A DNA stretch of 64,000 nucleotides from Bacilli bacterium (GTDB lineage: Bacteria > Bacillota_I > Bacilli_A > RFN20 > CAG-826): contig JAILBR010000030.1 of the NCBI GenBank assembly GCA_024680795.1, positions 7,594 to 71,593 on the forward strand, read 5' to 3'. The notes under the pieces are model-generated. The model had not been told where the DNA came from. It saw only the letters and a program-made list of their open reading frames with translations, and searched no databases. Both the position numbers and the translations under genes were made by a program. Positions 8,964-62,096 of this stretch are shown in pieces; the first letter of the stretch is position 1; each line of letters starts with the position of its first letter.

Positions 8964-8992
8964 TAATTTATTCATTAGAGATACAATATAAA

Positions 8993-9147: not shown

Positions 9148-9939
9148 ATGAAAAAAGAAAGAAGAAGTGTAAGTGAAACTATTACAAGAATGTCGACTTT
9201 AGCAATCTTATCGGCATTAGGATTTGTTTTGATGTCTTTTGCACAGTTTCCAAATCCATTCGCACCATGGTTAAAGATTGAGGTTAGTGAAATTGTTACC
9301 TTACTAGCGTATGCCTTATATGGTTTGCCTGGTGGTATCTTTGTAGCGATTACCAAAACCGGATTAAATATCGCTGTTAGAGGTTTATCAGCAATGGGTT
9401 TAGGTGATATAACTGCCTTTATCACCTCTTGTGTATTTATCCTTGGCCTATTTTTAACTAGCCATGTTTTCAAATGGTTTAAAAAAGGATTAGGTTTTAG
9501 AATCTTATCTTATGGAGTTATTACAACATTAGTGACAGTGGTTTTAACTTTCTTAAATGCAATATTCATTACCCCTTCCTATTTAACTATCTTTAGTGAG
9601 GGTAGATTATCGACATGTTTTGAACCCGGAATGATTCAAAATGTTGTTAATTATCTACTGAAAACTGATAGCACAAGTGTCAATGGATGGGTCTATATAG
9701 GCGCAATCTGTGCGATTTACGTGCCTTTTAACTTGCTAAAAGGAGCAATTTGCTGTGCGGCTTACGAGATACTTTTCAATCGTTTGATTTTTGTCTTTAT
9801 GAGAAGATCAGAGTTCTTCCAAAAATACTTTGTTGGCAATATTTTTACTAAAAAAGCTGAAGAAAAACCAGCTGAAGAAGAGCCTAACTCGGATATAGTA
9901 AACGAAGAAGTAAAGGAAGAGGAAGAACAAAATGGCTAA
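9148..9939 (+). CDS. Riboflavin-transporter-like membrane protein (ECF S-component/RibU-like) with acidic C-terminal tail
   Basis: Multi-TM protein immediately downstream of the FMN riboswitch. I moved the start from 9085 to the in-frame ATG at 9148 because 9085-9147 is riboswitch/terminator RNA. C-terminal tail is KKAEEKPAEEEPNSDIVNEEVKEEEEQNG. The substrate is inferred from the riboswitch context. Confidence 0.7.
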   Translation: MKKERRSVSETITRMSTLAILSALGFVLMSFAQFPNPFAPWLKIEVSEIVTLLAYALYGLPGGIFVAITKTGLNIAVRGLSAMGLGDITAFITSCVFILGLFLTSHVFKWFKKGLGFRILSYGVITTLVTVVLTFLNAIFITPSYLTIFSEGRLSTCFEPGMIQNVVNYLLKTDSTSVNGWVYIGAICAIYVPFNLLKGAICCAAYEILFNRLIFVFMRRSEFFQKYFVGNIFTKKAEEKPAEEEPNSDIVNEEVKEEEEQNG

Positions 9940-48443: not shown

Positions 48444-48477
48444 TTAACAAACTTTTTAATTATGTTTGTTGTTAAAA
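48444..48477. repeat. Left copy of 34-bp direct repeat flanking the HipA-like gene
   Basis: TTAACAAACTTTTTAATTATGTTTGTTGTTAAAA. Contains the inverted half-sites AACAAAC/GTTTGTT and overlaps the gene's stop codon (48472-48474). Confidence 0.9.
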
Positions 48478-49767
48478 TAGACTTTTAAGATAGTTATATC
48501 TATTTAATATTGCATCAGCAATTTCATCCTTATTAGGAATATCCATAGGGATGTTTTTGATGATGTTATTAATGTCTTCTAAATCTATGCTTTTGAATTT
48601 GATTGTTTTATATAGTTCTCTTGCTACTTTATTATTATTTAGGAAGTTAACGAACACTTTGATAAAACCATCTTTCTTTGGGTTGCTATTAAGCACGTCA
48701 TTAACCGCGATTAAAGATAAGTTATTATCATAGTTAGGCGCTAAAGAAATGATTTTTCCATTATCAGGATTTCTTAATAACCCAAGATTTTCGTTATGCC
48801 TGTCGATGTTATTAACAACCGAATCAAAACATATCATCTTCAAATATTCTTTAGCGATGTCTTCTCTTATCTTGTATAGGATATCAAAGATATATTCATA
48901 GTTATCATTATCGTCAGCGAGAGAGGCAATTGGTTCAAAGTTATAATCTTTTGCGAAATTCTTACATCTAATAAACCCTTCATCTAATTCATATTTAACA
49001 GTATCTATCCCAATGAGGTTTGCAAATTCAGTGGAGAATAATTCAGAGAATAATTGCTTATCATTTCCTACTTTATATAGCCACCATTCATTATCGATAT
49101 ACCTCCAACCTTTTTCAAAACTACCAGTGGTGGTGATTTCCGGAGATAACTTGCTTTTATGATAAAAGACATTAACTTCACCTTTTAACGAAGTATCAAA
49201 TAAGATGTCGTTAGTGAAAATCACATCGTTATATTTGAGCTTTGAATGTTTTGGTTTAAACCAATAGTGATCGCTAACTGATAATGCATAAGCATATAAA
49301 GATGTTTTATAATCTTCATCAACTTCGATATTTAATACCTTCTTTAATATTCTTGCATTGGTCCTGCTCATATCAATAACACGAAGTTTTAAAAACTTCT
49401 CAATCGAATGAGTTCTTTTAATGACTAATGGGGCAAGTGATTCGTTGATATCAATAAGGACACCTTTTTCAAATCTAGCAGTTATCACATTCTTATTCAT
49501 AATATAACCAGTTAGCTCATCTGCGTTCTTCGATAAAGAATAGTCTCTTGATTTGTAGCTTTTAATTTGCTTTTCAATTTCTTTACGTCTTTGAATTTGT
49601 TTTTTAAGAAGTTCTAATTCTTCTTTGGACTTGATAATCCCGCTATATCTTTTGCCATTAGAAAAATATTGATGGTAATAATAGGTCTTACCATTAATGG
49701 TTTTCTTATATATATTCCCAAGTGGAAGAGAATGAAGTTCTTTTAATAATACGCTTAAAGTGTTCAT
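48472..49767 (-). CDS. HipA-family kinase-like protein (toxin-type), no adjacent HipB-like gene
   Basis: C-terminal domain motif VVNNIDRHNENLGLL...ISLAPNYDNNLSL matches the HipA_C catalytic DRHxxN and APxYD motifs. Confidence 0.8.
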   Translation of the reverse strand: MNTLSVLLKELHSLPLGNIYKKTINGKTYYYHQYFSNGKRYSGIIKSKEELELLKKQIQRRKEIEKQIKSYKSRDYSLSKNADELTGYIMNKNVITARFEKGVLIDINESLAPLVIKRTHSIEKFLKLRVIDMSRTNARILKKVLNIEVDEDYKTSLYAYALSVSDHYWFKPKHSKLKYNDVIFTNDILFDTSLKGEVNVFYHKSKLSPEITTTGSFEKGWRYIDNEWWLYKVGNDKQLFSELFSTEFANLIGIDTVKYELDEGFIRCKNFAKDYNFEPIASLADDNDNYEYIFDILYKIREDIAKEYLKMICFDSVVNNIDRHNENLGLLRNPDNGKIISLAPNYDNNLSLIAVNDVLNSNPKKDGFIKVFVNFLNNNKVARELYKTIKFKSIDLEDINNIIKNIPMDIPNKDEIADAILNRYNYLKSLF

Positions 49768-49773
49768 ATTTAT

Positions 49774-49801
49774 ATTATATAAAATTTAACAAACTTTTCA
49801 A
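49774..49801 (-). promoter_or_regulatory. Putative promoter of the HipA-like gene, embedded in the right repeat; predicts a leaderless mRNA
   Basis: On the minus strand: TTGAAA (49801-49796), 16-nt spacer, TATAAT (49779-49774), then only 6 nt before the ATG (49767). No Shine-Dalgarno sequence is visible. Confidence 0.45.
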
Positions 49802-49819
49802 TTATGTTTGTTGTTAAAA
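49786..49819. repeat. Right copy of 34-bp direct repeat flanking the HipA-like gene
   Basis: TTAACAAACTTTTCAATTATGTTTGTTGTTAAAA, 33/34 identical to 48444-48477, located 1342 bp away. Confidence 0.9.
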
Positions 49820-49886
49820 AACAAAATTTGGTATTACAATACCGAAAAATATTAATTTTTGATATCAGTTATGCTAACATATTTCC

Positions 49887-50552
49887 ATGAAAAGAATAGT
49901 TTATCATGGCACGGATCACATAATTGAAAAGCCATTATTTGGGTATGGTGAAAGGCACAATGATTACGGCTTAGCTTTTTATTGTGCCGAGAATATCGAT
50001 TTAGCAAAAGAATGGGCTTGCAAAGAAAAACCTAATGGCATTGTAAACAAATACGAAGTTGATATAGATTCATTTAGAATTTTAGATTTGACTGATAAAA
50101 ACAAGTACAGTGTTTTAAATTGGATAGCAATTATTCTTCATTTTAGGGACGTGGATGATGATATCAAAAATCAATTTGATATAGAACTTCAATTTCTTGA
50201 AGAAAACTATTATATAGATGTTGAAAAATATGATGTGATTATTGGATACCGCGCTGATGACGCATATTTTAGATTTCCACAAGCGTTTATCAGAAATGAG
50301 ATAACAGTGGAGAAACTGGAAGAAGTGTATTTATTAGGAGATTTAGAAAAACAGATTTCTTTTAAAAGCGAACGATCATTTATGCAATTATTATTTGTCG
50401 ATTATTTTGAAGTGGATGAAGAATATCATCAACGTTATATAGAAAGAATTAATAAGGCTAAGAAGAAGTTTTCTCAAATATTAAATGATGAAAGAAGAAA
50501 TACTACTGGAAGAAGATTGAGAGATTTGATTTTTGGAGAGAAAAAAAGATGA
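49887..50552 (+). CDS. DUF3990-like protein with ADP-ribosyltransferase-like H-Y motifs
   Basis: N-terminus IVYHGTDH...HNDYGLAFYCAENIDLAKEWA fits my recollection of the DUF3990 profile. It also resembles the HG[ST]...G-x-x-FY-x-A strands of H-Y-E ARTs. Confidence 0.7.
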   Translation: MKRIVYHGTDHIIEKPLFGYGERHNDYGLAFYCAENIDLAKEWACKEKPNGIVNKYEVDIDSFRILDLTDKNKYSVLNWIAIILHFRDVDDDIKNQFDIELQFLEENYYIDVEKYDVIIGYRADDAYFRFPQAFIRNEITVEKLEEVYLLGDLEKQISFKSERSFMQLLFVDYFEVDEEYHQRYIERINKAKKKFSQILNDERRNTTGRRLRDLIFGEKKR

Positions 50553-51550
50553 TTGATTATTATGACAAAAGTTTAATAGTGGAATTATTCGAACATATTT
50601 TTTCTATTGCCTTAACTAGAAGAATGAATCCAAAAGCTTTAGAACATCTTATTTCCAATTCCAGGATAGCAAACGATTTAGAAAAGGGTGATTCTAGTTT
50701 CCTAAATGATTGTTATAAACCAAAGCTAATTGAAGATTTGTTTAAAGCAAAACTGACAAAGGAAGAATGGGAAAGCCATTATGATATTTGCTTATGGGTT
50801 AGCATGATGTATGTTTCTTTGCTCTTTAAATATAAAAAATCATTTGAGTATCTTTTCTTATATATTTCCATTGAAGAGATGCATGATAAATTTTATTTAT
50901 ATCATGAAATGGATATTACTCAACTATATAGTTATTTTGAAATGAAGGTAAATAAAAAAACCTTATTGTCATCACTAATGAAAAAACATCATTATTCTTC
51001 TTCCTCGCTATCGGTTGCTAGTGGAATAAGTGTTAACACAATTGAAAAGTACTGTAAAAGCGATGAAGCTTTATATAGAGCCAGTTATGAAAATATTTAT
51101 ATGTTAAGTCATCTTTTACATGTTAAAAGCAACATTTTCGCTAGACAGTTAATACTTGCTGATGAGATTACAAAATATAGAAACGATTACGATAATATGA
51201 TAGAAAAGTTAGGACTATTTTTTGCTTGCTATTATGATAGAAACATCGCTAAAGAAAAGTTTGAATACGATAAAAGCACACAAAGATATCGTTCTGCAAA
51301 GATCAATGATTTATTTTTGCTTGTGATTAAAAATATAAATGAGTTACCTGAGAAGTCTCCTATTGACTATAATACAATCCTTGTTTTAGTTATGAATGAA
51401 GTTAACATCGAGAAAGAAGAACTGGCTTATTTTAAAAGAATAATTGTTATCAGTGAAAACGAAGCATACGATTTAGACAAAAATAGCAAAAAACCGATAT
51501 CGAATGATGTAAGAGAAACTAGTGTTGTTTTATTAGAAAAAGATAATTAA
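50549..51550 (+). CDS. Hypothetical protein with DUF3791-like N-terminus and central HTH-like segment, translationally coupled to the DUF3990 gene
   Basis: ATGA overlap with the upstream gene. The central segment SSLSVASGISVNTIEKYCKSDE looks like an XRE-type helix-turn-helix. The domain assignments are tentative. Confidence 0.55.
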   Translation: MIDYYDKSLIVELFEHIFSIALTRRMNPKALEHLISNSRIANDLEKGDSSFLNDCYKPKLIEDLFKAKLTKEEWESHYDICLWVSMMYVSLLFKYKKSFEYLFLYISIEEMHDKFYLYHEMDITQLYSYFEMKVNKKTLLSSLMKKHHYSSSSLSVASGISVNTIEKYCKSDEALYRASYENIYMLSHLLHVKSNIFARQLILADEITKYRNDYDNMIEKLGLFFACYYDRNIAKEKFEYDKSTQRYRSAKINDLFLLVIKNINELPEKSPIDYNTILVLVMNEVNIEKEELAYFKRIIVISENEAYDLDKNSKKPISNDVRETSVVLLEKDN

Positions 51551-51602
51551 TTCCCCCTATCAAATAAGAAGTATTGTATAATAAGAATAACAAAGACATA
51601 TT

Positions 51603-52304
51603 ATGGTAGTAAGTATTGTCCTCATAGTGCTTGGAATGATTTCAATGTCTTTCTTTATCTATGGAAAGATTACTAACTATTCCATTAAGACTAATATCAT
51701 TAAATTAGTTACATCTTTATTATTTGTCGCTCTAGCGTTATATCTATATATCACCAAAGGATATCCACTCATTGGATTATTTATCCTTTTAGGTGGTATT
51801 TTTGGTTTATTAGGGGATGTGGCCTTAGGACTTAAACGTATCTTTAAAAATAAAAATAAGCAGCTTATATTATTAGGCTTATTCTTCTTCGCTATTGGTC
51901 ATATATTATATGATACTGGATTATATATCTGCTATTACATCCCAGGACAAATCGTAGCGATTATTATCCCAGTGATATTAGCCCCTTTATGTGGATCATT
52001 TGGTTCGATGTTATTAGAAAAGGTATGCCATCTCCATTATGGCAAATTTAAATATATTGGAATGTTCTATTATACCTGTGTCTATTCCTTATCACTCGTA
52101 AGCTTCTCCTTATTAGCGATTAATGGCTTTACTAATACATTCTTATGGATATTCTTTGTGGGTGCATTATTATTCGCTAGTAGTGATACGATTTTAGCCA
52201 AGACCTACTTTAGTGATAATGTTAAAAAGGTTGATCAGATATCAACAACCATTACCTATTATCTCGCTCAATTTGTGATTGCCTTCTCAATTTTCTTCTT
52301 ATAG
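51603..52304 (+). CDS. YhhN-family membrane protein (lysoplasmalogenase-like)
   Basis: Eight hydrophobic helices with the LLGDVALG and FASSDTILA motifs typical of YhhN/TMEM86. Extended -10 TGTATAAT upstream, at about 51576-51583. Confidence 0.8.
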   Translation: MVVSIVLIVLGMISMSFFIYGKITNYSIKTNIIKLVTSLLFVALALYLYITKGYPLIGLFILLGGIFGLLGDVALGLKRIFKNKNKQLILLGLFFFAIGHILYDTGLYICYYIPGQIVAIIIPVILAPLCGSFGSMLLEKVCHLHYGKFKYIGMFYYTCVYSLSLVSFSLLAINGFTNTFLWIFFVGALLFASSDTILAKTYFSDNVKKVDQISTTITYYLAQFVIAFSIFFL

Positions 52305-52321
52305 AAACATAAATGCTACAA

Positions 52322-52361
52322 AATAGAAAATAAATATGTCTATAGACATATTTTTTCTATT
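52322..52361 (+). terminator. Long near-perfect hairpin after the YhhN gene
   Basis: AATAGAAAATAAATATGTCTA / TAGACATATTTTTTCTATT: a 19-bp stem with a 2-nt bulge, centred at 52342/52343, followed by TTTT. Confidence 0.6.
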
Positions 52362-52450
52362 TTTAAACATTGTTAGACATGCATTGTAGCATTTGCTACA
52401 TATGGTGTCCCCTATTTCATATATAGATATAAAGTGATATTATTATCGAT

Positions 52451-52894
52451 ATGGAATTTAAAAAAGAAACTTTAACTGATGATGTCATAGAACAATTAAT
52501 ATCTTTATCAAAAGAATGGGTAGAAGAAGATTGTTGTTTTGGAATGGTCGCTAACACAAGAGATGATTTAAAAGAACCTCTATTTGTAGCAGTGGAAGAT
52601 AATATTATTGTTGGATATATATTTGGCCACTATTATGAGCAAGAAAAGAAAACCTCATATATAGAAATAGGGGAGAAGTGCTTTGATGTTGATGAACTAT
52701 ATGTCAAAAAAGAATATCGAGATCAAGGAATAGGAAGAATCCTATTTAATGTGATGGAACTAGAAGTTAAAGATAAATGTAAATATATAACTCTAGCGAC
52801 ATCTAATAAAGATTATAAGAAAGTATTAAAGTTTTATACGGAAATAGAAGATATGACCTTCCATAGTGCCTTCTTAATTAAAGAGATGAAATAA
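52451..52894 (+). CDS. GNAT-family N-acetyltransferase
   Basis: Motif A VKKEYRDQGIGRILF; 147 aa. Confidence 0.85.
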   Translation: MEFKKETLTDDVIEQLISLSKEWVEEDCCFGMVANTRDDLKEPLFVAVEDNIIVGYIFGHYYEQEKKTSYIEIGEKCFDVDELYVKKEYRDQGIGRILFNVMELEVKDKCKYITLATSNKDYKKVLKFYTEIEDMTFHSAFLIKEMK

Positions 52895-52905
52895 GTGTTA
52901 ATGCG

Positions 52906-52932
52906 TAAGTGCAAGGCACTTATTTTTCTTTT
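52906..52932 (+). terminator. Rho-independent terminator after the GNAT gene
   Basis: TAAGTGC-AAG-GCACTTA followed by TTTTTCTTTT. Confidence 0.6.
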
Positions 52933-52974
52933 CGATACAAAAAGTAAAAATTTTTGGTCATAAAAATGAAAAAT

Positions 52975-52998
52975 CCTCCTATTAGTTTAATGAGGAGG
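52975..52998 (+). promoter_or_regulatory. Hairpin sequestering the Shine-Dalgarno of the RhuM-like gene
   Basis: CCTCCTATTA-GTT-TAATGAGGAGG. The 3' arm is the AGGAGG SD (52993-52998), 8 nt upstream of the ATG at 53007. Confidence 0.45.
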
Positions 52999-53006
52999 TC
53001 TTTTAC

Positions 53007-54263
53007 ATGGCCAATGAAAATTACGAAATAATCAAGTTCAGTTATGGTGATATAGAACTTGATATAAAGGTATCACCAAAAGAAAATACTGTGTGGTTAT
53101 CTCTTAATGATATGTGTGTGCTTTTTAAGAGAACAAAACCATCAATATCTAAACATATAAGAAATATCCTACAATCAGAAGATAGTGATGAAAATTCAGT
53201 TGTTTCACATATTGAAACAGTTCAAGCAAAAATTGAAACAACTGCCTCTGATGGCAAGGTCTATGATGTTGATTATTATAGTCTAGATGTTGTTATGGAA
53301 ATAGGTAAAAGAACTAGATCGGATATAACCCCTATATTCTATAACTGGTGTATGGAAACTTTAGCTGATTTAAATGGAGAAAACGAGATACAATCTAACA
53401 TAGTTAGATATGAAAACGGAAATGTCTCATTAAATGTCAACTATTCCCCTGAAGAAAAGACTATTTGGATGACTCAAAATCAGATTGCAATATTATATGA
53501 AACAACTCAACCAAATGTCAGTATGCACATCAAAAATATCCTTGATGAAAGTGAGTTAGATTTGAATTCAGTTCATAAGAATTACTTATATACTGCCACA
53601 GATGGTAAACAATATTTTGTCTCACTTTATAACCTAGATATGATACTTGCTATTGGTTATCGAACTAGGACAAAAAAGGCAATCGAATTCCGAAGTTGGG
53701 CCACAAAGATTATCACTGAATATTTGTTCAAAGGCTATGTTGATAATAACGATTCGAATATATCCAAAGACTTTGTCAAAGATATCACCGCTTCAATAGT
53801 GAGACTTGATAGTAGAGTGTCTCAATTAGAAGTGAATCAAAAGCATTATTTTCTAGATAATATTATGATTCAAGATGGCCAAGCATTTGAGGCAAAAGTT
53901 TGGATGAATAAAATCATTGAAACCGCTCAAAAAGAAATAGTGCTCATTGATTCTTATGTGAATATAAATTCACTGGATTTGTTTAAAAACAAAAAAGAGG
54001 GTGTTTCTTTATATATTATTACTTCTTCAATCAAATTGAGACTATCGCAAGTTGAAATAGATTCTTTCAATAATGAATATGGTTATTTACAAGTGAAATA
54101 TGATGAAAGATATCATGATCGTTATCTAATTATTGATGATGAAGTGTTCTATGATCTAGGTAATTCCACTAATCACATGGGGATACGCTTCAGTAGTGTC
54201 AAGCAAATCAAAGATATAGATTTCATAGATATAATAAGAAAAAGAATAAGAGAAGTTATCTAG
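53007..54263 (+). CDS. RhuM-family protein with duplicated N-terminal RhuM/ORF6N-like DNA-binding domain and HDRYLIID C-terminal domain
   Basis: Two tandem copies of the module ...TVWLSLNDMCVLFKRTKPSISKHIRNIL...DGKVYDVDYYSLDVVMEIGKRTRS... and ...TIWMTQNQIAILYETTQPNVSMHIKNIL...DGKQYFVSLYNLDMILAIGYRTRTKKAIEFRSWAT.... The C-terminal region has IVLIDSYV...YHDRYLIIDDEVFYDLGNS. Confidence 0.8.
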   Translation: MANENYEIIKFSYGDIELDIKVSPKENTVWLSLNDMCVLFKRTKPSISKHIRNILQSEDSDENSVVSHIETVQAKIETTASDGKVYDVDYYSLDVVMEIGKRTRSDITPIFYNWCMETLADLNGENEIQSNIVRYENGNVSLNVNYSPEEKTIWMTQNQIAILYETTQPNVSMHIKNILDESELDLNSVHKNYLYTATDGKQYFVSLYNLDMILAIGYRTRTKKAIEFRSWATKIITEYLFKGYVDNNDSNISKDFVKDITASIVRLDSRVSQLEVNQKHYFLDNIMIQDGQAFEAKVWMNKIIETAQKEIVLIDSYVNINSLDLFKNKKEGVSLYIITSSIKLRLSQVEIDSFNNEYGYLQVKYDERYHDRYLIIDDEVFYDLGNSTNHMGIRFSSVKQIKDIDFIDIIRKRIREVI

Positions 54264-54328: not shown

Positions 54329-54343
54329 GACATAAATAATGTC
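54329..54343. promoter_or_regulatory. Palindromic candidate operator, site 1 (GACAT-N5-ATGTC)
   Basis: GACATAAATAATGTC. The 21-nt block ACATAAATAATGTCACATTGA (54330-54350) recurs at 56904-56924 with 20/21 identity. A TATAGT -10-like hexamer lies at 54355-54360. Confidence 0.55.
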
Positions 54344-54392
54344 ACATTGACTTCTATAGTAAAGGTGCAGTCGATAACAAGGAGGTAAGTTG

Positions 54393-55034
54393 ATGAGTGT
54401 TGTTGTTGCAATAAAAGAAGAAGGAAAGGTTTATATCGGTGCTGATTCACAAGTGACCAAAGGCGGAACTAGAACCACTTTAAAAAATCCTAATAATTAT
54501 AAGATTTGGAAAGTTGATGGTTGTGAGAACTGCCTAATGGGTCATGTCGGTAATCTCAGAGATGCGAATATCGTGAGGTTAATGAGAAATGTCGTTGATG
54601 ATTACGACGAGTTCTATGAAAGAGTCAACTACCGATATGTGGTGAAGTATCTAGTTCCAGAAATCATCAAAAGCCTAAAAGAAGCTAAGTTCCTTAAAGG
54701 GGCTGATGATTATCTCGACTTCATGGATTCTAGTTACCTATTCGCCTATAAGGACAAGTTATTCTGCATCAACACTGATTGCTCGGTGATTGAAATCGAT
54801 GACTATGTGGCGATTGGCAGTGGATCTCAAGAAGCGATTGGTAGCTTATTATCCACCGAAGGACAAAATCCAAGAAAGAGGATTGTTAAGGCCATCAAGG
54901 CCAGTGCGGCGAGTGACATCTATGTCGATTACCCAATCATCCTAACCGATACAGGGGAAATGAACTTCGAAGTTGTAACAGAGAAAAATGAAAATAAGTA
55001 TCTCGGAAACACTAAAGGAGGAGATAAGTCATGA
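54393..55034 (+). CDS. Proteasome beta/HslV-like Ntn hydrolase with N-terminal Ser
   Basis: After Met removal the N-terminus is SVVVAIKEEGKVYIGADSQVT, which aligns to HslV [21 protein letters not shown] with Ser at position 1 and Asp at position 17. It also has the YKIWKV Lys region and the VAIGSGSQEAIGSL GSG motif. AAGGAGG lies upstream; the ATG is at 54393 and an in-frame TTG at 54390. Confidence 0.75.
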   Translation: MSVVVAIKEEGKVYIGADSQVTKGGTRTTLKNPNNYKIWKVDGCENCLMGHVGNLRDANIVRLMRNVVDDYDEFYERVNYRYVVKYLVPEIIKSLKEAKFLKGADDYLDFMDSSYLFAYKDKLFCINTDCSVIEIDDYVAIGSGSQEAIGSLLSTEGQNPRKRIVKAIKASAASDIYVDYPIILTDTGEMNFEVVTEKNENKYLGNTKGGDKS

Positions 55035-55147
55035 AAGTATTAGGATTTATATTCCTGGGGTTATGTCTCATAACCCTGGGAATTGTCAGTGTGAAATTAG
55101 GGTGGGTAGATTATATCTACCACTGGTTTGAAGGGTTGGTGAAATAG
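55031..55147 (+). CDS. 38-aa single-pass membrane peptide (not in the supplied ORF track)
   Basis: ATGA overlap with the upstream stop. Translation is MKVLGFIFLGLCLITLGIVSVKLGWVDYIYHWFEGLVK. It ends 1 nt before the next ATG and exactly fills the inter-ORF gap. Confidence 0.45.
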   Translation: MKVLGFIFLGLCLITLGIVSVKLGWVDYIYHWFEGLVK

Positions 55148-55148
55148 G

Positions 55149-55580
55149 ATGGAATATTTTAATAAGATTGTGATTACTACCAGTGTGGAAGATGTCTTTA
55201 TTAGAGATGGTAGACAAGTAGTGATATCTAACTGCAAGCATCATATTGAAGAAGGATGTTTATATATCGCCGCTGAACTTGGTGATATCGATATCGTCAT
55301 TCCTCATGGGAGATATGAAAGCATCAAGATTAATACCTCAACTGGAGATGGACATATCGAATTAAACGATGCTTCAATTGGTCAATTATCGTTCATATCT
55401 TCGACTGGAGATTTATATCTAGACGCGGAATGTGACTATGTGTCATTTAATTCCCTATGTGGAGACTTAATTCGTTCTAATAATGGACATAGACTTCAAT
55501 CATCTCTAAAGACAAAAACCGTTAAGACAACAGTAACTAACCAAACTCAAGATTGGAGAAATGGAGAGAGGTATAAATAA
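55149..55580 (+). CDS. DUF4097-like all-beta protein
   Basis: Repeated short strands ending in S/T-G-D (INTSTGDGHIEL, FISSTGDLYLD, FNSLCGDLIR), as in DUF4097/LiaG-YvlB-type beta-helical proteins. Confidence 0.6.
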   Translation: MEYFNKIVITTSVEDVFIRDGRQVVISNCKHHIEEGCLYIAAELGDIDIVIPHGRYESIKINTSTGDGHIELNDASIGQLSFISSTGDLYLDAECDYVSFNSLCGDLIRSNNGHRLQSSLKTKTVKTTVTNQTQDWRNGERYK

Positions 55581-56899
55581 TGAAATTTAATAAGAATGAT
55601 TATTTCGATTATAACGGTGATAGATTAACGATTCTTGATCTACTTGGAGAAGGTGGACAAGGAGAAGTATATCTCGTTAGTTATAAGGGACAAAAGCTCG
55701 CCTTTAAATACTATAAGGACATTCCTAGTGACGACTTCAAATATAATTTGAAAAATAACATCACTAAGGGCAGTCCATCTTCTACCTTCTTATGGCCTAA
55801 AGAATATATCGAATTCGATGATGATTCATGTGGCTATCTCATGGAACTTAGACCTAAAGAATATGTCTCATTTGTCTCATATCTAACCGGCACGAATAGG
55901 TTTAAGAATAAGAGGATTATGCTTAACTGGTGTATTGAACTAGTGAAAAGTTTCAAACTCTTACACGAGAAAGGCTATTCATATCAAGACCTTAACGATG
56001 GCAGCTTCTTCCTTAATCCTGAAAATGGAAAATTACTAATCTGTGATAACGATAATGTCACCGCGGATAAACGTAGTTTAGGGGTATTAGGAAAGATGAG
56101 ATATATGGCCCCAGAAATCGTGAGAGGTGATAAAGATAAAAATACGGGAGAAAGGCAAATGCCTGATACCCATTCTGACCGTTTCTCTTTAGCGATTATC
56201 CTCTTCTTGGCATTATGTATGGGCAATCCATTTGAAGGGGAATGTTTAAAGAAATATGTGATTGTTGATGAGAAAGCGGAATATGAGATGTTTGGTAGTA
56301 AGCCAGTCTACATCTATAGCGAACTTGATAAAACAAATCGTCCGATTAGAGGCTATCACACCGCGGTCATTAATAAATATCCAGAACTGCCTACTTATAT
56401 CAAAGAAGCATTCCATAGAACGTTTGTTGATGGGCTTAAAGATAGAGAGAATGGTAGGACCAATGAGCTAGAGTGGTTGAAGTTATTATGTAAATATCGT
56501 GATGAACTGATTACTTGCTCATGTGGGAAAGAATATATCTATGGATTCAATGAAAAGAAACATAACGATAGATGCCCATATTGCAAAAAGGAAACAAGAA
56601 GATTCTGCTATCTACAGATTGGGAAAAATAGAATCCTTTTAGAACCTAATAAATATATCTATGAGATCCATATCGATAAGTATTCATCTAACTATAACTT
56701 AGCGGTTGGCAAAGTCATCGTTAATAAGAATAATCCAGGATTATGGGGCATCAAATTGCAACTAAATAACGATATACTTATCAAAGATAAGAGTGGTAAA
56801 GAAAAGACCATTACCAAGGATGGAGTAATTCCGATTGTTAATGAACTAAAAATCAAGTTCAGTGATACGTCAATTGGACAAATAATAACTAACCAATAA
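55580..56899 (+). CDS. Ser/Thr protein kinase with C-terminal zinc ribbon and beta-rich domain
   Basis: Gly-loop LLGEGGQGEVY, beta3 Lys LAFKYY, catalytic loop YQDLNDGSFFLN, DFG-equivalent ICDNDN, YMAPE and DRFSLAIIL. These are followed by CSCGKEY...RCPYCKKE. TAATG overlap with the upstream gene. Confidence 0.88.
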   Translation: MKFNKNDYFDYNGDRLTILDLLGEGGQGEVYLVSYKGQKLAFKYYKDIPSDDFKYNLKNNITKGSPSSTFLWPKEYIEFDDDSCGYLMELRPKEYVSFVSYLTGTNRFKNKRIMLNWCIELVKSFKLLHEKGYSYQDLNDGSFFLNPENGKLLICDNDNVTADKRSLGVLGKMRYMAPEIVRGDKDKNTGERQMPDTHSDRFSLAIILFLALCMGNPFEGECLKKYVIVDEKAEYEMFGSKPVYIYSELDKTNRPIRGYHTAVINKYPELPTYIKEAFHRTFVDGLKDRENGRTNELEWLKLLCKYRDELITCSCGKEYIYGFNEKKHNDRCPYCKKETRRFCYLQIGKNRILLEPNKYIYEIHIDKYSSNYNLAVGKVIVNKNNPGLWGIKLQLNNDILIKDKSGKEKTITKDGVIPIVNELKIKFSDTSIGQIITNQ

Positions 56900-56902
56900 C
56901 AT

Positions 56903-56917
56903 TACATAAATAATGTC
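56903..56917. promoter_or_regulatory. Palindromic candidate operator, site 2 (TACAT-N5-ATGTC)
   Basis: TACATAAATAATGTC, part of the 21-nt block shared with site 1. A TAAGAT -10-like hexamer at 56929-56934 sits at the same 11-nt offset as in site 1. Confidence 0.55.
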
Positions 56918-56967
56918 ATATTGAATATTAAGATAAAAACGAAAACAAAATAGGAGAAAGAAAAATA

Positions 56968-57690
56968 ATGAAAGACAGAACAATAGCCGAAGGCATTAAA
57001 AAACAAGAATTGAACCTCATATTCATCATCGATAATAGTGGTTCTATGGAAGGAGAAAAGATTGGCGCGGTCAATAATGCGATTAGAGATGTGATGAGCA
57101 TTATGCCAGAAATCCAAGAAGATACTTCTGATGCAGAAATTAAGATTAGCGCTTTAACATTCTCTGACCACTGTAAATGGGTTTATAAAGAACCACAAGG
57201 TGTTAATGATTTTAAATGGAATGATATCACCACGGAAGGAGGAACTGACTATTCTAAGACTTATGATGAATTAGCGAAGTTCCTTTGTAAGAAAGAAAAT
57301 GGTGGTCAAATGCCAGATATCGGGGGAGTGGCCCCAATCATCATCCTTATGAGTGATGGTATGCCTACAAGCCCAGATTGGATGGATCATCTTAATAGCT
57401 TACGAAAGAAAGGCTGGTTTAAAGTCGCTCTTAAATACGCCTTAGCGATTCAAATCGATACTCAAGAAGCAATGGATGTCTTATCCGCTTTCACTGGTAA
57501 TCCAGAAACAGTGCTAAAAGTCTATACCGCAGAAGCTTTAAGAAAAGTAATTAAGGTTATTGCGATTACCGCTAGTAAAGTCAAATCATCCTCTAGCCAA
57601 GTCAGTGGCGGCACTCTTATCTCTAAAGAAGAAGAGGCTAAACAAGAAATCGCTAAAGGATTAGAAGAAATCTCTGACGTGGAATGGTAG
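56968..57690 (+). CDS. vWA-domain protein (TerY-like), paralog 1
   Basis: MIDAS motif IIDNSGSMEG, plus TEGGTDY and LMSDGMPT. C-terminus is ...EEISDVEW. Confidence 0.88.
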   Translation: MKDRTIAEGIKKQELNLIFIIDNSGSMEGEKIGAVNNAIRDVMSIMPEIQEDTSDAEIKISALTFSDHCKWVYKEPQGVNDFKWNDITTEGGTDYSKTYDELAKFLCKKENGGQMPDIGGVAPIIILMSDGMPTSPDWMDHLNSLRKKGWFKVALKYALAIQIDTQEAMDVLSAFTGNPETVLKVYTAEALRKVIKVIAITASKVKSSSSQVSGGTLISKEEEAKQEIAKGLEEISDVEW

Positions 57691-57704
57691 GAGGATAAGG
57701 AAAG

Positions 57705-58415
57705 ATGATGGATAGAATTGCCAAAGAAAAACTAAATATCATCCTTCTTATCGATGCTTCCAAGTCCATGCAGGGTAATAGAATCAAACAAGTAGATCAA
57801 GCAATATACGATATTCAAGATTATCTAATTGATTTAGGAAAAGAAAACACAAACGTTGATTTTTACCTCACCTTAATACCATTCGCAACGGGGTCCTCCT
57901 TTTATCAAAATCAAGTTTCCACTCATATTGAAAACTTCCGTTACGATGGTATTAAGTGTGGGGGGTATTCAAACCTCCATCTCGCCTTAGATAATCTCGG
58001 GGACATCATGAAGAAAGAATCTAAAGGTGGAATTATGCCAGATTTTGGAGGGGCATCGCCAATCATCCTTCTTCTTACTGATGGTCATCCAACCGGAAAT
58101 GCTTATAAGGAATCATTAGAAAACATTAAAGATATCCCTTGGTATAAAGCTGCTTTGCGATACGGAATCGCGATTGAGCTAAATGATGATAGGACGATGA
58201 AAGTGTTAAGCGACTTTGTGGGTAAGAATGGAGATGTGATTAACTGTTATCATTCTTCCTTACTCAAAGATATTATCAAGGTTATTGTCTTAACCGCGAG
58301 TAAGGTGAGATCAAGCTGCACGAACATCGCTAACGGACCTCATGTCACTCAAAACCAATTAGCCCAACAATATATTGCAGAAGCATTAAGTGATATCGAT
58401 GCATCGGGGTGGTAG
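57705..58415 (+). CDS. vWA-domain protein (TerY-like), paralog 2
   Basis: MIDAS motif LIDASKSMQG, plus LLTDGHPT. Collinear with paralog 1 (IIKVIVLTASKVRSS versus VIKVIAITASKVKSS). C-terminus is ...LSDIDASGW. Confidence 0.85.
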   Translation: MMDRIAKEKLNIILLIDASKSMQGNRIKQVDQAIYDIQDYLIDLGKENTNVDFYLTLIPFATGSSFYQNQVSTHIENFRYDGIKCGGYSNLHLALDNLGDIMKKESKGGIMPDFGGASPIILLLTDGHPTGNAYKESLENIKDIPWYKAALRYGIAIELNDDRTMKVLSDFVGKNGDVINCYHSSLLKDIIKVIVLTASKVRSSCTNIANGPHVTQNQLAQQYIAEALSDIDASGW

Positions 58416-58417
58416 AA

Positions 58418-59242
58418 ATGTATTACGTATTTAATAAGTCCAGTATTGGATATGCACACATAAAAAATAAAAAACCATGCCAGGATTATTCCGCTTCATA
58501 TCAGGATAACGAGCGAGTGATTATCACGTGTTGTGACGGCCATGGAGGCGCTCAATATGTGAGAAGTCAAATTGGTTCAAAAATCGCTAGTAATTCCATA
58601 ATAAATGTATTTTCTTCAGTCAATTCCCGCTTCTTTTTGGAAAATGATATAGAAAAAGTGAAGTTATTGGTCCTTTGTGAATATAACAAATTAGTGGAAC
58701 AAGAACTCAATAAAAAGCCAATTAGGAAGAAGGATTTGAAAGGACTAAAAGAAGAAGACATTGATATGCTAAGGTTCAATCCGATGAAGGCTTATGGGAC
58801 CACTTTATCAGGTGCGATGATCTATAAAAACCATCTCTTAGTCATCTCAATTGGAGACACAGAAGTATTAGGAATTAGGAAAGGCGAACTAGTAAAAATA
58901 TTCGATAATTCCAATGACCCCGCTGGTAATGTTACCTACTCGATGTGCCAAGAAGATGCCTATAAATATCTACGTGTTGCGGACCTAGACATTAGGGATT
59001 TTGATGGGATACTTCTATGTACAGATGGCCTATCTAGCCCCTATCAAAGCTATGACAACTTCAATGAATCGTTTGTTAGACCAAGTGTCCATCGTGTGAT
59101 TTGTTCAAAGTCAATTCGTGAACTAGATAGCAATATCGAAAAGATCGCTACTAGGTTAGGGGTAGGGGATGATGTCAGCTTATCGCTCATCTTAAGTGAT
59201 AAAACAAACGAAAAATTTTATCGAAGGAGAAATATAGAATGA
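58418..59242 (+). CDS. PP2C-family protein phosphatase
   Basis: CQDYSAS...CCDGHGGAQ, SIGDTEV, LCTDGLSS and GDDVSLSLIL metal-binding motifs. ATG at 58418, 3 nt after the upstream stop; the track ORF uses the GTG at 58409. Confidence 0.85.
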   Translation: MYYVFNKSSIGYAHIKNKKPCQDYSASYQDNERVIITCCDGHGGAQYVRSQIGSKIASNSIINVFSSVNSRFFLENDIEKVKLLVLCEYNKLVEQELNKKPIRKKDLKGLKEEDIDMLRFNPMKAYGTTLSGAMIYKNHLLVISIGDTEVLGIRKGELVKIFDNSNDPAGNVTYSMCQEDAYKYLRVADLDIRDFDGILLCTDGLSSPYQSYDNFNESFVRPSVHRVICSKSIRELDSNIEKIATRLGVGDDVSLSLILSDKTNEKFYRRRNIE

Positions 59243-59988
59243 AAAAGATTACAAAATTATTAACTACATGTTTAGCGGCCTTAACTTTAGTGGGCTGCAA
59301 TAAAGGCGAAGAATATATTCCAAATATGTTAGGAAGAGTATTCGGTGATTTTGACTATAACGGAGTCTTTCTTACCGAATATGCGATTAAACAAATTAAA
59401 GTTGATGAAGCTAAAAAACTTGTCGATATTAGACCAAATCTAAAAAGAAACTATAAGTTAAGAGAAACTACTGAAGAAGATATTAAAACAGTTCTCTCTA
59501 AATATGCTTCTCTAGTCACTACCGTCAAATACTACATCAGTGGTAATGAAGAACAACAAGTGAGAAGTGATATCTATCAAGGTACAGATTTCAAGTATTT
59601 ACTTGAAAATAACTACTACGAACCATTTGGACAGATGAGTGTTAAATATATCTTTGTTGATGATGATCTTCTTGATGAGATGGAAGCCGCTAATGAGGAG
59701 TTTATCAATAATAAACAACATCTAGTTAGCCCATTTAATGAACCATTTACCTATCACACTAGTGAAGAAGATAAGTTAATCGTCCAAACTCATCATTTTG
59801 CGGAACTACCAGCTTCTATCAGCGGTGGTATCGGCTCAACATTTAGACAGGATTGTGAGCTTCTCTTCGATGAAGAAGGAAAAATAACATTCTGGCAGTC
59901 GTCATTAGGGTTATATACATCTACTCCTACTGGCACTGTCAAAGAAGGATATGTGTTTGAAGTAGGATTCGAATGGATCAGTAAATAG
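59239..59988 (+). CDS. Lipoprotein, function unknown
   Basis: MKKITKLLTTCLAALTLVGC signal peptide plus lipobox. ATGA overlap with the phosphatase gene. Confidence 0.75.
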   Translation: MKKITKLLTTCLAALTLVGCNKGEEYIPNMLGRVFGDFDYNGVFLTEYAIKQIKVDEAKKLVDIRPNLKRNYKLRETTEEDIKTVLSKYASLVTTVKYYISGNEEQQVRSDIYQGTDFKYLLENNYYEPFGQMSVKYIFVDDDLLDEMEAANEEFINNKQHLVSPFNEPFTYHTSEEDKLIVQTHHFAELPASISGGIGSTFRQDCELLFDEEGKITFWQSSLGLYTSTPTGTVKEGYVFEVGFEWISK

Positions 59989-60000
59989 AAAGGGAAGAGA

Positions 60001-61056
60001 ATGGACTATCAAAGTGCGTTTACTAAAATTATTAATCAACACGGATTAGAAATATTGGACAATAACTTTCTAGTCCATTCTTTTCTTTTAGATTTGATTG
60101 GTGGAGATAAGCGAAGTATCGAACTTGCGGAAGCTTTCTTTATTCTTAATGATGAGAGCGTTTATCTTAAAATCTCAGGAAAGAAACTAAGCGAAATAGC
60201 GCCTTTGCTTGATGGGCTGATTAGGACTTTAGATAGATCATATACCTCATTAATTTATCTACTATCTATTGAGCCTCTTTTAATCCATCTATTCCCCTAT
60301 GAATATGTTAAATTGAATCCGAATATCAAACATGGTGCCCCTAAAATCGTAAAAGCACCTCATAATAAAAGCATGCAAAGTGTGCATATAACTCCAGTAC
60401 AAATTACCCCACAGGTAAAGAAAAAAGTAGTGGTGGACTCCTACATAATTAATGCGAGATGTCGAGGGTTATCTATTGTCTGTTCGAATAATAAGAAGAT
60501 AAGAATTATTGATAAAGGTTACCATGATGTGACTAAGCAGTTTAAGCCTAAGAAGAGTAAAAACATTAGAACCTTAAATATTGAAGGTAGACATAATTCT
60601 TTCTATCTATTTTTACCTAAGAAAAGATATAAAAATGTCACTATCAATTTCAAAGGAGTGAAGTTGTCTCTAACTGGTGACCATAATAATAACTTCAAAT
60701 GCGAACAACTTGAGATAAATGCGAATAAGATTAACGGACAAATATTTGTGGACTCTGATGTGATATCTGGAAAAATAGATAAAGGCACTATTCAGTTCTA
60801 TGGGGAGATAAAGAATATTGTTCTTAACTATGGAGATGTCGATGTCAAAGCGCTTATTAAGGGAGTAAATGCGAATAGATATATGTGTAAAGTGAATAAA
60901 GGCAATATCGAAATCAACTTCTTAGACATCATTTTAAAATCTAAGGTTAGACACATCTTCAAAGGCTCTATTAATGTTCATAACACATATAATGTGAATG
61001 GCAGACAGATGGAGCTAAAATTAAGTACTGATCGTGGCAAGATAAATGTGCTTTGA
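60001..61056 (+). CDS. Hypothetical two-domain protein with DUF4097-like C-terminal beta region
   Basis: Helical N-terminal about 110 aa. The C-terminal half has repeated short beta strands (VKLSLTGDHNN, INGQIFVDSDVISGKIDKG, NKGNIEINF, TDRGKINVL) resembling the 55149 protein. Confidence 0.6.
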   Translation: MDYQSAFTKIINQHGLEILDNNFLVHSFLLDLIGGDKRSIELAEAFFILNDESVYLKISGKKLSEIAPLLDGLIRTLDRSYTSLIYLLSIEPLLIHLFPYEYVKLNPNIKHGAPKIVKAPHNKSMQSVHITPVQITPQVKKKVVVDSYIINARCRGLSIVCSNNKKIRIIDKGYHDVTKQFKPKKSKNIRTLNIEGRHNSFYLFLPKKRYKNVTINFKGVKLSLTGDHNNNFKCEQLEINANKINGQIFVDSDVISGKIDKGTIQFYGEIKNIVLNYGDVDVKALIKGVNANRYMCKVNKGNIEINFLDIILKSKVRHIFKGSINVHNTYNVNGRQMELKLSTDRGKINVL

Positions 61057-61069
61057 TATACAGTTGTTA

Positions 61070-61098
61070 TTGTTAATATTACATCAAAAATGTATTAT
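61070..61098 (+). promoter_or_regulatory. Putative promoter of the WYL regulator with embedded palindrome, site 3 (TACAT-N5-ATGTA)
   Basis: TTGTTA (61070-61075), 17-nt spacer, TATTAT (61093-61098). The palindrome TACATCAAAAATGTA (61080-61094) occupies the spacer and the start of the -10. Confidence 0.45.
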
Positions 61099-61115
61099 TA
61101 ATCAGAGGTAACTAT

Positions 61116-62096
61116 ATGGGTAAAGCCGCAATGTGCATCAAAATGCTCCAGATTTTAAATACTGGGCGCACCTACAAAGTTAGTGAACTAGCAGACCTTT
61201 TGGAAACCAATCCAAGAAATGTTATCGAATATAAAAAAGAACTCGATGAAGTGGTTTCTGATTCTTTTGGTACTGCTGGTTTTTATATTGAGACAATACC
61301 TGGCCGTTATGGCGGATATCGTCTTCATGGTGATGTGGCGATGCCAGCCTTAAGATTAACCGAAAATGAAAAAGTATCTTTTATAGAAGCTTTAGATTAT
61401 CTTTCATCCCGTAATGACTTCATGGCAAAAAATGACTTCCAAGTTGCTGTTGGAAAAGTTTTTGCTGCTCTTATTACTAAAGAAATCAAAAAAGAAGAGA
61501 ATGTTTTAATCATTAACCGCTATCCATTAGTGATGCCGCAAGAGGAAATTGAACATCGTTATAATGTGATCAAAGTTGCGATTAAGCAGAATAAAAAAAT
61601 TAAGTTTAACTATCTTTCCCAAAAGAACACTGTTAAGGAAAGAATCTTTGATCCATATGAGTTATTTATGTATAACAACGCTTGGTTTGTAATAGGATGG
61701 TTAAATTCTGAAAACCATCCAGGTGTCTGCTGGTTTAAGTTAAACCGTATGCAAGATATCTCAATGACAAACGAAAAATATACGATGTGGAAATACTATC
61801 ACAAAGCCGATTATATCGATGAATATGGCTTCAAAAGTAATGGTGAGTGGTACCATGTTGAATTTATAGCCCATGAGACATACGCAAGTTTATGTAGAGA
61901 AAGAATATATGGGAAAAACCAAGTAGTTGAAGTTATTGATGATAATTCCACTAAAGTAAGTGTGGATATGCAAAATAAAGAAAACATCAGGGTGTTCATC
62001 CTTGGATTTGGAGAGAATCTTGATGTATTAGAGCCCGATTGGCTTAAAGAAGATCTTAAGAATATCGCAAATGCGATGTTAGAAAAATATAGGTAG
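61116..62096 (+). CDS. HTH-WYL-domain transcriptional regulator (YafY/BrxR/CapW-like architecture)
   Basis: N-terminal wHTH IKMLQILNTGRTYKVSELADLLETNPRNVIEYKKEL. WYL domain IKFNYLSQKNTVKERIFDPYELFMYNNAWFVIGW. Has a C-terminal extension. Confidence 0.85.
   Translation: MGKAAMCIKMLQILNTGRTYKVSELADLLETNPRNVIEYKKELDEVVSDSFGTAGFYIETIPGRYGGYRLHGDVAMPALRLTENEKVSFIEALDYLSSRNDFMAKNDFQVAVGKVFAALITKEIKKEENVLIINRYPLVMPQEEIEHRYNVIKVAIKQNKKIKFNYLSQKNTVKERIFDPYELFMYNNAWFVIGWLNSENHPGVCWFKLNRMQDISMTNEKYTMWKYYHKADYIDEYGFKSNGEWYHVEFIAHETYASLCRERIYGKNQVVEVIDDNSTKVSVDMQNKENIRVFILGFGENLDVLEPDWLKEDLKNIANAMLEKYR

Follow-up and report, generated by a model that had tools for sequence, protein, structure and literature searches.

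A proteasome-fold peptidase with a predicted N-terminal serine nucleophile encoded beside a TerY-P-type kinase module in a Bacilli bacterium

The gene described here lies on contig JAILBR010000030.1 of a Bacilli bacterium (GTDB lineage RFN20; assembly GCA_024680795.1), of which a stretch of 64 kb was analyzed. This whole stretch is referred to as the window; coordinates are those of the window unless another locus is named, and the labels L001–L156 denote the related loci compared with it. At positions 54393–55034 of the plus strand the window encodes a 213-residue peptidase with the fold of the proteasome-like N-terminal nucleophile (Ntn) hydrolases, similar to BPH and HslV, with a predicted Ser nucleophile; the assignment draws on Pfam PF00227, on an AlphaFold2 model compared with known structures by Foldseek, and on conserved catalytic columns. 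The translation starts with MSVVVAIKEEGKVYIGADSQVT and also holds NYKIWKV and AIGSGSQEAIGSL, so that the coordinates, the open reading frame and the sequence stretches quoted in an earlier note on this DNA are correct. The kinase gene and the two von Willebrand factor A (vWA) genes that the same note placed next to the peptidase were recovered by Pfam.

The peptidase gene, its fold and its predicted active site

An AGGAGG ribosome-binding site (54380–54385, plus strand) is located 7 nt 5' of the ATG at 54393. An in-frame TAA at 54375–54377 limits the possible starts to this ATG and to a TTG at 54390, which is one codon further 5' and merely 4 nt from the ribosome-binding site. An upstream start or a propeptide is therefore impossible, and the circumstance named beforehand as fatal to an N-terminal nucleophile, burial of Ser2 behind a longer N-terminus, is excluded: Ser follows the sole plausible start codon. 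In several relatives GTG replaces ATG directly 5' of the Ser codon, which confirms the position of the start. Once a few over-extended gene calls are allowed for, Met-Ser followed by Val or Leu opens, or lies at the mis-called start of, all 120 close homologues. Ser after Met makes a good substrate for methionine aminopeptidase. In BPH, removal of the start Met and exposure of residue 1 were observed by mass spectrometry (PMC5777263).

The Pfam Proteasome profile (PF00227) matched the peptidase with 38.6 bits (gathering score 22.4, E 1.2e-9), and the same domain is precomputed for 119 of the 120 close homologues. AlphaFold2 modeling on 27 homologues yielded a model (mean pLDDT 86.9, pTM 0.86) with two β-sheets and two helix pairs, H55-62 with H80-97 and H145-154 with H160-172, i.e., the α-β-β-α sandwich of proteasome-like Ntn hydrolases. 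A Foldseek search of the PDB with this model retrieved 931 proteasome-family chains at E <= 1e-3, headed by BPH of Thiobacillus denitrificans (5ovs, E 5e-10, TM 0.64/0.72) and continuing with 20S subunits and HslV (1g3i, TM 0.56/0.68). Profile, model and structure search thus agree on the proteasome/HslV-like fold that had been proposed by eye.

The proposed catalytic residues, too, were upheld by hidden Markov model (HMM) alignments, in which D18 corresponds to HslV Asp17, K37 to HslV Lys33, G50-x-x-G53 to HslV G45-x-x-G48, and G142-S143-G144 to the GSG loop (proteasome Ser129). An exhaustive HMMER search over 1.84 billion cluster representatives revealed 2257 relatives at E <= 1e-3, of which 382 also passed E <= 1e-10. 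Of the full-length representatives clustered at 50% identity, 106 have Ser directly behind Met; Thr takes this place in 5, Gly in 2 and Ala in 1. Ser as position 1 is thus conserved in all 120 close relatives and in 106 of about 115 more distant relatives. When 110 representatives spanning 27–59% identity were aligned, only S2, K8, D18, K37, G53, G142 and G144 reached at least 90% conservation. Taken together with the operon described below, the peptidase is likely to be a catalytically competent N-terminal-Ser Ntn hydrolase of the MEROPS T1-like kind, as predicted from sequence, and to represent a family of its own nearest to BPH and HslV.

A Thr-rich loop of the peptidase, TKGGTRTTL, was considered as a kinase-specific phosphorylation site and dropped, as it is equally conserved with or without a kinase at the locus.

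A ten-gene operon and its recurrence

The peptidase gene is the first in a tightly packed run of ten plus-strand genes (54393–62096) that overlap or are separated by 1–68 nt and form one operon, a two-vWA variant of the TerY-P triad. No plus-strand terminator was predicted inside it by a scan that performed no better than on shuffled sequence; a promoter scan of the region did no better than on shuffled sequence either, and the GC profile does not mark the limits of the cassette.

Aligning the upstream regions revealed an operator-like palindrome that an inverted-repeat tool had missed on account of its 5-bp arms. In the window it is found as GACATAAATAATGTC at 54329–54343 (plus strand), followed by a –10-like TATAGT at 54355–54360 and the peptidase gene. 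A motif scan located a second copy, TTACATAAATAATGTCA, in the gap between the kinase and the first vWA gene (56902–56918, plus strand), and a variant, TTACATCAAAAATGTA, lies just 5' of the WYL gene (61079–61094, plus strand). The consensus of the operator family is TTACAyAAATArTGTAAC, with a –10-like TATAGT or TATAAT after it, and the palindrome overlaps the –35 region of this promoter-like sequence. Across 70 non-redundant relatives, 19 have the operator 53–127 nt upstream of the peptidase start (most of them 53–89 nt), against about 0.6 expected from a background of 0.06 per kb. It precedes the first gene of the operon by some 50–130 nt in L001, L002, L005, L007, L011, L026, L029, L033–L038, L055, L057, L079, L080, L085, L088, L089, L110 and L115. 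The copy in the kinase–vWA gap recurs only in L026, L035 and L037, and a canonical copy is located 36–56 nt upstream of the WYL gene in L024, L035, L055 and L057. In loci lacking the peptidase the operator precedes the kinase gene or the gene of a small membrane peptide; it is also found 5' of AAA genes (L026, L098). As one operator is common to peptidase, vWA, WYL, kinase and AAA genes, the peptidase belongs to the same regulon as the signaling genes. We infer that the WYL-WCX regulator of the operon probably binds this palindrome.

To assess how often peptidase and kinase module occur together, 77 peptidase-centered loci were gathered from genomes and metagenomes, and linkage was counted in those 25 non-redundant loci in which the sequence extends for 3 kb or more to either side of the peptidase. 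Kinase, two vWA genes and PP2C lie beside it in 13 of the 25; an AAA gene is present within 3 kb in 8, kinase module and AAA gene together in 2, and neither in 6. The genes flanking the kinase-linked loci are unrelated, and gene order varies, with the peptidase gene coming last, after PP2C, in L024 and L093. The hosts are Erysipelotrichaceae, Acholeplasmatales, Anaeroplasmataceae, Eubacteriales and Clostridia, the family being patchily distributed and confined to Firmicutes and Mollicutes of gut and rumen. A scan centered on the kinase showed the peptidase in about half of the close two-vWA modules (kinase at least 55% identical) and never in the distant triads with a single vWA gene from Bacteroidota, Lachnospiraceae and Treponema (kinase 36–42% identical). 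Conserved synteny, translational coupling and the shared operator bear out the idea that the peptidase belongs with the kinase/vWA locus rather than with HslU. In L014, an Acholeplasmatales metagenome-assembled genome (5879–9174 of that locus), the peptidase is followed by a 162-residue protein, a protease that looks ClpP-like by eye, and a 541-residue protein without a Pfam match, a further setting rich in proteases.

Downstream of the peptidase, and overlapping its stop codon by ATGA, the window encodes a 38-residue single-pass membrane peptide (55031–55147), which is conserved at 44–73% identity in more than 15 related loci by tblastn and called as a gene in L027 and L028. Next come a 143-residue toastrack (DUF4097) protein (55149–55580; PF13349, E 8.6e-6) and the Ser/Thr protein kinase (55580–56899; Pfam Pkinase). 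The kinase carries a C-terminal zinc ribbon of the form CxC...CxxC (C313, C315, C332, C335), invariant together with the kinase motifs in 16 orthologues, and a β-rich C-terminal domain without a Pfam match. Two TerY-like vWA proteins follow, identified by Pfam VWA and by sequence, each with its metal ion-dependent adhesion site (MIDAS): vWA protein 1 (56968–57690) has the motif DNSGS and an acidic tail ending in ...SDVEW, and vWA protein 2 (57705–58415) has DASKS and a tail ending in ...DASGW. The acidic tails with terminal Trp (57676–57690 and 58401–58415) are conserved in all vWA orthologues of L001–L156, with the endings ...D[VI]EW for vWA1 and ...DDWEW for vWA2, and ...DDGIQW or ...VQDGW in the distant single-vWA systems. 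Its sequence pattern suggests that the Trp-ended tail is a motif common to TerY-P modules at large, for docking or as a MIDAS ligand. A role as a peptidase-docking motif was considered and dropped, because single-vWA systems, in which the peptidase never occurs, conserve the tails just as well.

The remaining operon genes, all likewise on the plus strand, encode a PP2C-family Ser/Thr phosphatase (58409–59242; PP2C_2, PF13672, E 8.9e-31), a 249-residue lipoprotein with a signal peptide and the lipobox LVGC (59239–59988), a hypervariable 351-residue protein (60001–61056) and a WYL-WCX transcription regulator (61116–62096). The lipoprotein, identified by sequence and synteny, has no Pfam or PDB match, and its gene directly follows the peptidase gene in L007, L008 and L009. 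The same gene had been considered as a hidden α-like subunit; this was rejected, as the product is a lipoprotein and the family HMM finds one proteasome-like open reading frame only. The 351-residue protein is a core member of the module that follows PP2C in most loci. It has neither Pfam nor PDB matches, a word-based homologue search returned only the protein itself, its single-sequence AlphaFold2 model lacks a recognizable fold (pLDDT 34.6), and it shows no significant similarity to the toastrack protein. The regulator has a PafBC/BrxR/CapW-type architecture (Pfam WYL and WCX) and matches the PADLOC WYL models at E 1e-24 to 3e-25.

The operon genes evolve at unequal rates. Between the window and its relatives identity is ~83% for the kinase, ~84% for vWA1 and ~78% for the peptidase, while the toastrack protein falls to 37–42% where the kinases are 83–87% identical, and the 351-residue protein to 23–39% where they are 70–84% identical. 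Since these two diverge fastest, they may, speculatively, face a variable partner.

On its 5' side (48472–54263) the operon adjoins a variable, island-like stretch with a HipA-like kinase toxin (minus strand), a DUF3990 protein with a helix-turn-helix, YhhN, GNAT and a RhuM/Fic-like protein; the last matches the PADLOC candidate PDC-S05 at E 7e-85. After the WYL gene, from 62105 to 64000 and running off the end of the window, lies a gene for a large lipoprotein-like surface protein with Asp/Gly-rich repeats and several C-terminal transmembrane segments. Two further peptidases of the window, a clostripain-family (C11) peptidase with immunoglobulin-like domains (20431–23067) and a subtilase with Big_2 domains (17977–19557), are probably secreted and are unrelated to the operon.

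ATPase neighbors, paralogue arrays and known relatives

The earlier note had found no HslU, AAA+ or α-subunit gene in the window. HslU is indeed absent, and the family HMM detects a single proteasome-like open reading frame in the 64 kb; the absence of AAA+ genes does not hold, as FtsH (AAA plus Peptidase_M41) is encoded at 32898–34943, 19.5 kb upstream of the peptidase among mfd, lysS and gidA. This FtsH is a housekeeping, self-contained protease, and besides it the window contains no AAA gene.

The comparison of relatives altered the picture further. The enzyme had been described as standing alone without a partner ATPase, its control being sought in the kinase and vWA proteins rather than in an unfoldase; as a property of the enzyme this is not supported. 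In the closest relative outside the window (L026–L028, 80% identity), which is one of those whose peptidase gene adjoins an AAA gene, a gene of the CbbX/EccA-type AAA lies 99 bp 5' of the peptidase gene. The absence of an ATPase is thus a state of this locus, not of the family. In L026 the AAA protein (8868–9905 of that locus) combines PF00004 with AAA_lid_6 and matches PDB 3zuh at E 9e-56, in an operon that is otherwise similar with extra genes inserted. AAA genes of the CbbX/EccA/SpoVK type also lie beside the peptidase in L003, L046–L048 and L057. Overall, the AAA neighbors in the eight loci counted above come from at least four AAA lineages, and in many relatives they are only 22–160 bp from the peptidase gene.

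In a recurrent four-gene context, seen in L012, L016, L020, L022 (6691–10527 of that locus) and L059, a WYL1-like gene (PDB 6oaw, E 1.6e-14) is transcribed divergently from the peptidase gene, and the other two genes encode a coiled-coil protein and a single-domain, Cdc48/VAT-D2-like AAA protein. The coiled-coil protein (c13, 205 residues) has no PDB match and belongs to no known family. L022 comes from the cultured Liberiplasma polymorphum. In L039 (6435–7850) a soluble FtsH-like AAA-M41 protein of 471 residues precedes the peptidase, and an SNF2 helicase follows the AAA-M41 protein; in L054 (8644–9702) a further AAA gene overlaps the peptidase stop codon.

Ten loci of Clostridia carry two to four tandem proteasome-like genes beside the kinase/vWA/PP2C module, often with a Cdc48-like AAA gene: L092, L093 (12663–14960), L098, L099 (6449–7852), L100, L102, L105, L114 (1509–3771), L115 and L117 (5174–7441). 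In most of these arrays one copy keeps Ser or Thr at position 1 (an MS or MT start), D17, K33 and the glycine motifs, and the one to three interleaved copies, which start with MI, MV, ML or MF, no longer have the nucleophile, Asp17 or Lys33. This pattern of residues suggests that the arrays might form heteromeric particles with inactive α-like subunits. The window carries the minimal, single-gene form of the system.

The peptidase shares with HslV and CodW the fold, the catalytic residues and the condition of a single-gene bacterial homologue, and PHROG 1040 ('peptidase HslV family') matches it at E 1e-13. However, the NCBIfam HslV equivalogs score only 31.5 bits (NF003964, cut-off 137) and 31.0 bits (TIGR03692, cut-off 157.75), so the peptidase is not an HslV orthologue. 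It also exceeds HslV by 30–40 residues, has extra sequence inserted between strands S2 and S3, and its pore loop is longer; hslU is absent beside it, and the AAA neighbors in relatives belong to the classical AAA clade and not to HslU.

BPH (5ovs, 5ovt, 5ovu) is the best structural match and aligns over the full length of the sequence. Both proteins lack a propeptide, with exposure of residue 1 by Met removal shown for BPH and predicted here; both have the catalytic Lys shifted to about position 36–37 instead of 33 and an acidic loop after helix 2; and neither BPH nor the peptidase of this window has a dedicated ATPase. In contrast, identity to BPH is only 17–18%, and in profile comparison BPH (E 1e-12) does not surpass HslV of T. 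maritima (5e-14), which points to a sister family rather than to BPH proper. BPH, which is inert in vitro and has no known partner (PMC5777263), also differs in having no conserved partners, whereas the present family has recurrent kinase/vWA/PP2C, WYL and AAA neighbors. Ser-1 in itself is no novelty, contrary to what had been supposed: it is the rule in BPH outside Betaproteobacteria and is documented for CodW and one Anbu (PMC5777263), the CodW of B. subtilis having been reported with an N-terminal Ser (PMC7468587).

Fuchs, Alva and Lupas (2021) described 22 families of proteasome homologues (AAH, CPH, FC1–FC5, etc.), likewise divergent bacterial proteins with Thr1/Ser1, Asp17, Lys33 and Gly47, several of them Firmicute-specific or phage-linked (PMC8665760). 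Neither informative genomic context nor a co-occurring AAA+ was reported for these families (PMC8665760), whereas both gene context and AAA+ neighbors were found for the one studied here. The comparison was made by description only, and the peptidase may belong to one of the 22.

Anbu lies in an operon with ATP-grasp, alpha-E and transglutaminase genes; none of them was found around the peptidase, and Anbu chains are absent among the best 60 of its 110 PDB profile matches. With the 20S proteasome and its regulators PAN, Mpa and Cdc48 the peptidase shares fold and chemistry, and the active and inactive paralogues of its relatives, with an adjacent Cdc48-like AAA gene, recall β and α subunits served by an unfoldase. 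PafBC, a WYL protein, adjoins proteasome genes in actinobacteria, as a WYL gene adjoins the peptidase locus. Unlike the 20S system, the window has a single gene with neither an α-like paralogue nor an AAA partner; the AAA partners in relatives lack an HbYX motif, and no Pup or ubiquitin-like tagging genes were seen. Finally, an IMG/VR scan returned zero relatives, and GenBank phages contain relatives at <=31% identity only, e.g., in Geobacillus virus E3 and T5-like phages; the peptidase is therefore not phage cargo.

In the TerY-P triad a vWA protein and a PP2C are joined by a kinase that bears a zinc ribbon or an OB fold (PMC11090510), and one TerY-P form protects against T7-like phages (Gao 2020, as recounted in passages of PMC7699616 and PMC11090510). 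All these components are present here, with two vWA proteins with intact MIDAS, a PP2C and a Ser/Thr kinase with a C-terminal zinc ribbon, and the distant single-vWA versions share the kinase (36–42% identity) and the acidic, Trp-ended vWA tail. The operon departs from the triad in its two vWA genes, in the extra toastrack, lipoprotein, hypervariable and WYL genes and in the added proteasome-like peptidase; furthermore, the validated TerY-P kinase, in the passages of PMC11090510 that describe it, carries an OB fold and not a zinc ribbon. In PADLOC, the kinase matches mad6 (E 9.5e-13) and, more weakly, the PD-T4-6 models (best 4.9e-8), and WYL regulators are typical of defense loci. Type III-A CoCoNuT systems (Bell et al. 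2024) resemble the present family in that duplicated TerY-like vWA genes flank SpoVK/Cdc48-like AAA+ cassettes with a TerY-P triad in conflict loci; vWA pairs, classical AAA+ and TerY-P elements are combined in L026, L015/L095, L099 and L092. Unlike in CoCoNuT, McrBC/CoCoNuT genes are absent here, and a proteasome-like peptidase does not figure in the description by Bell et al. 2024 (PMC11090510).

A proposed proteolytic arm of a conflict module

The explanation that we prefer, with a probability of roughly 0.7, is that the Ser-1 Ntn peptidase acts as the proteolytic arm in a conflict module with vWA proteins, which a WYL regulator controls and the kinase/PP2C pair switches. Fold, start site, catalytic conservation, operon layout, repeated linkage and common operator are shown by the data above; the mechanism that we infer includes ring assembly, proteolysis, the nature of the substrates, the direction of control and an anti-phage role. 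Methionine aminopeptidase would remove Met1, leaving Ser as the nucleophile with its free amine, and Asp17, Lys36 (mature numbering) and the GSG loop would complete the active site. By analogy with BPH and HslV, the protein would probably assemble into a self-compartmentalizing double-ring particle. The WYL regulator would hold the operon low until a signal of stress or infection arrives, whereupon the kinase/phosphatase pair would set the state of the vWA and other proteins, and the peptidase would degrade or process proteins handed over to it. The handover might be performed by the adjacent AAA+ unfoldase in many relatives, and here by the vWA adaptors or by a housekeeping unfoldase acting in trans. 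The control of the peptidase by phosphorylation or vWA docking put forward earlier would be plausible. A proteolytic machine is suggested by the AAA genes close to the peptidase gene in many relatives and by the arrays that set one catalytic copy beside one to three degenerate ones; the TerY-P hallmarks, the WYL regulator and the RhuM/PDC-S05 and HipA-like neighbors speak for a conflict setting.

Several observations weigh against it. The peptidase is facultative, being missing from roughly every second close two-vWA module, and the kinase module is missing from 12 of the 25 loci with the peptidase. Neither the Thr-rich loop of the peptidase nor the vWA tails revealed a sequence feature specific to a peptidase–kinase or peptidase–vWA pairing, and no HbYX-like C-terminal docking motif is conserved on the neighboring AAA ATPases. 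The nearest solved relative, BPH, is inert in vitro and without known partner. PADLOC has no model for the peptidase, the vWA proteins or the PP2C that gives a match, so that the defense role is argued by analogy, and the whole reading of the family is built from sequences and a structural model.

Other explanations were weighed against the same data. The peptidase could be a housekeeping HslV or CodW whose HslU or CodX is encoded elsewhere, with an incidental kinase adjacency; hslV normally adjoins hslU, which is absent beside the peptidase. HslV chains are among the best PDB sequence matches, JGI names one homologue HslVU peptidase subunit, Bacillus CodW has an N-terminal Ser (PMC7468587), and the window shows part of the genome only. 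We nevertheless consider this explanation very improbable, given equivalog scores of 31 bits against cut-offs of 137–158, a kinase linkage that recurs in different flanks under a shared operator, a patchy distribution, and AAA neighbors that are Cdc48-, CbbX- or FtsH-like and not HslU. Less improbable, though still unlikely, is an autonomous BPH-like clean-up peptidase for peptides or unfolded proteins, working without unfoldase or adaptor and riding a mobile cassette uncoupled from the kinase module. The partnerless state of BPH and the lack of context for the 22 families of Fuchs et al. speak for it, as do the 12 of 25 loci without the kinase module, the 6 of 25 with neither kinase nor AAA gene, and loops whose conservation is independent of context; the ATGA coupling, the shared operator and repeated co-occurrence in rearranged order are difficult to account for unless the combination is under selection.

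The peptidase might also act as a safety catch that degrades a toxic component of the operon (the membrane peptide, the toastrack protein or the hypervariable protein) until kinase signaling stops it, much as Lon controls toxin–antitoxin pairs. The small membrane-peptide and toastrack genes lie directly downstream and are translationally coupled to the peptidase gene; the membrane peptide, the toastrack protein and the 351-residue protein evolve fastest; and the peptidase is dispensable in half of the modules, as expected of an accessory regulator. However, the membrane peptide also occurs in the peptidase-less loci L080 and L088, and the toxicity of the components is a supposition; we hold this explanation, which is a variant of the proteolytic-arm explanation differing in the direction of control only, to be improbable. 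The least probable of the explanations considered is a sequence-specific transpeptidase or ligase that modifies an operon partner in the manner of the archaeal connectase. Connectase demonstrates that proteasome-fold proteins can be ligases (PMC8665760), and the C-terminal tails of the vWA proteins are strikingly conserved; yet connectase lacks the first helix pair (Fuchs et al., PMC8665760), the peptidase model has both pairs and resembles the ring-forming BPH and HslV, and the vWA tails are equally conserved without the peptidase.

Stand-alone proteasome homologues of bacteria are already known, and so are TerY-P triads and AAA cassettes flanked by duplicated TerY-like vWA genes. In the literature searched on proteasome or HslV in connection with vWA, PP2C, TerY, defense or WYL, a coverage that did not extend to the 2012 Ter-system paper, the linkage is not described. 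Apparently undescribed are the conserved and co-regulated combination in which a BPH/HslV-like Ser-1 peptidase joins a two-vWA TerY-P-type module and a WYL regulator, as well as the AAA partners of the peptidase family and its arrays of active and inactive paralogues.

We tentatively hypothesize, as a possibility well short of the proteolytic-arm explanation in likelihood, that the family could form the catalytic core of an unrecognized proteasome-like degradation system under the control of phosphorylation, which gut and rumen Firmicutes and Mollicutes would use in phage defense or for stress-induced self-destruction. The full form would combine an active Ser-1 subunit and one to three inactive α-like paralogues with a Cdc48-, CbbX- or FtsH-type AAA+, vWA adaptors, a kinase/PP2C switch and a WYL sensor-repressor, and the window would show a minimal homomeric form without ATPase. 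If true, this would give BPH-like homologues a natural set of partners and a physiological role for the first time, and would be a bacterial parallel to the layout of the 26S proteasome with its AAA ring, vWA receptor and active and inactive subunits. To our knowledge, bacterial proteasome homologues other than HslV are orphans, and recurrent co-regulated partners make the function of such homologues testable with named candidates. If the coupling is real, regulated proteasome-like proteolysis would join the effector repertoire of bacterial immunity, and the family would shed new light on the interconversion of unfoldase-dependent and unfoldase-independent forms.

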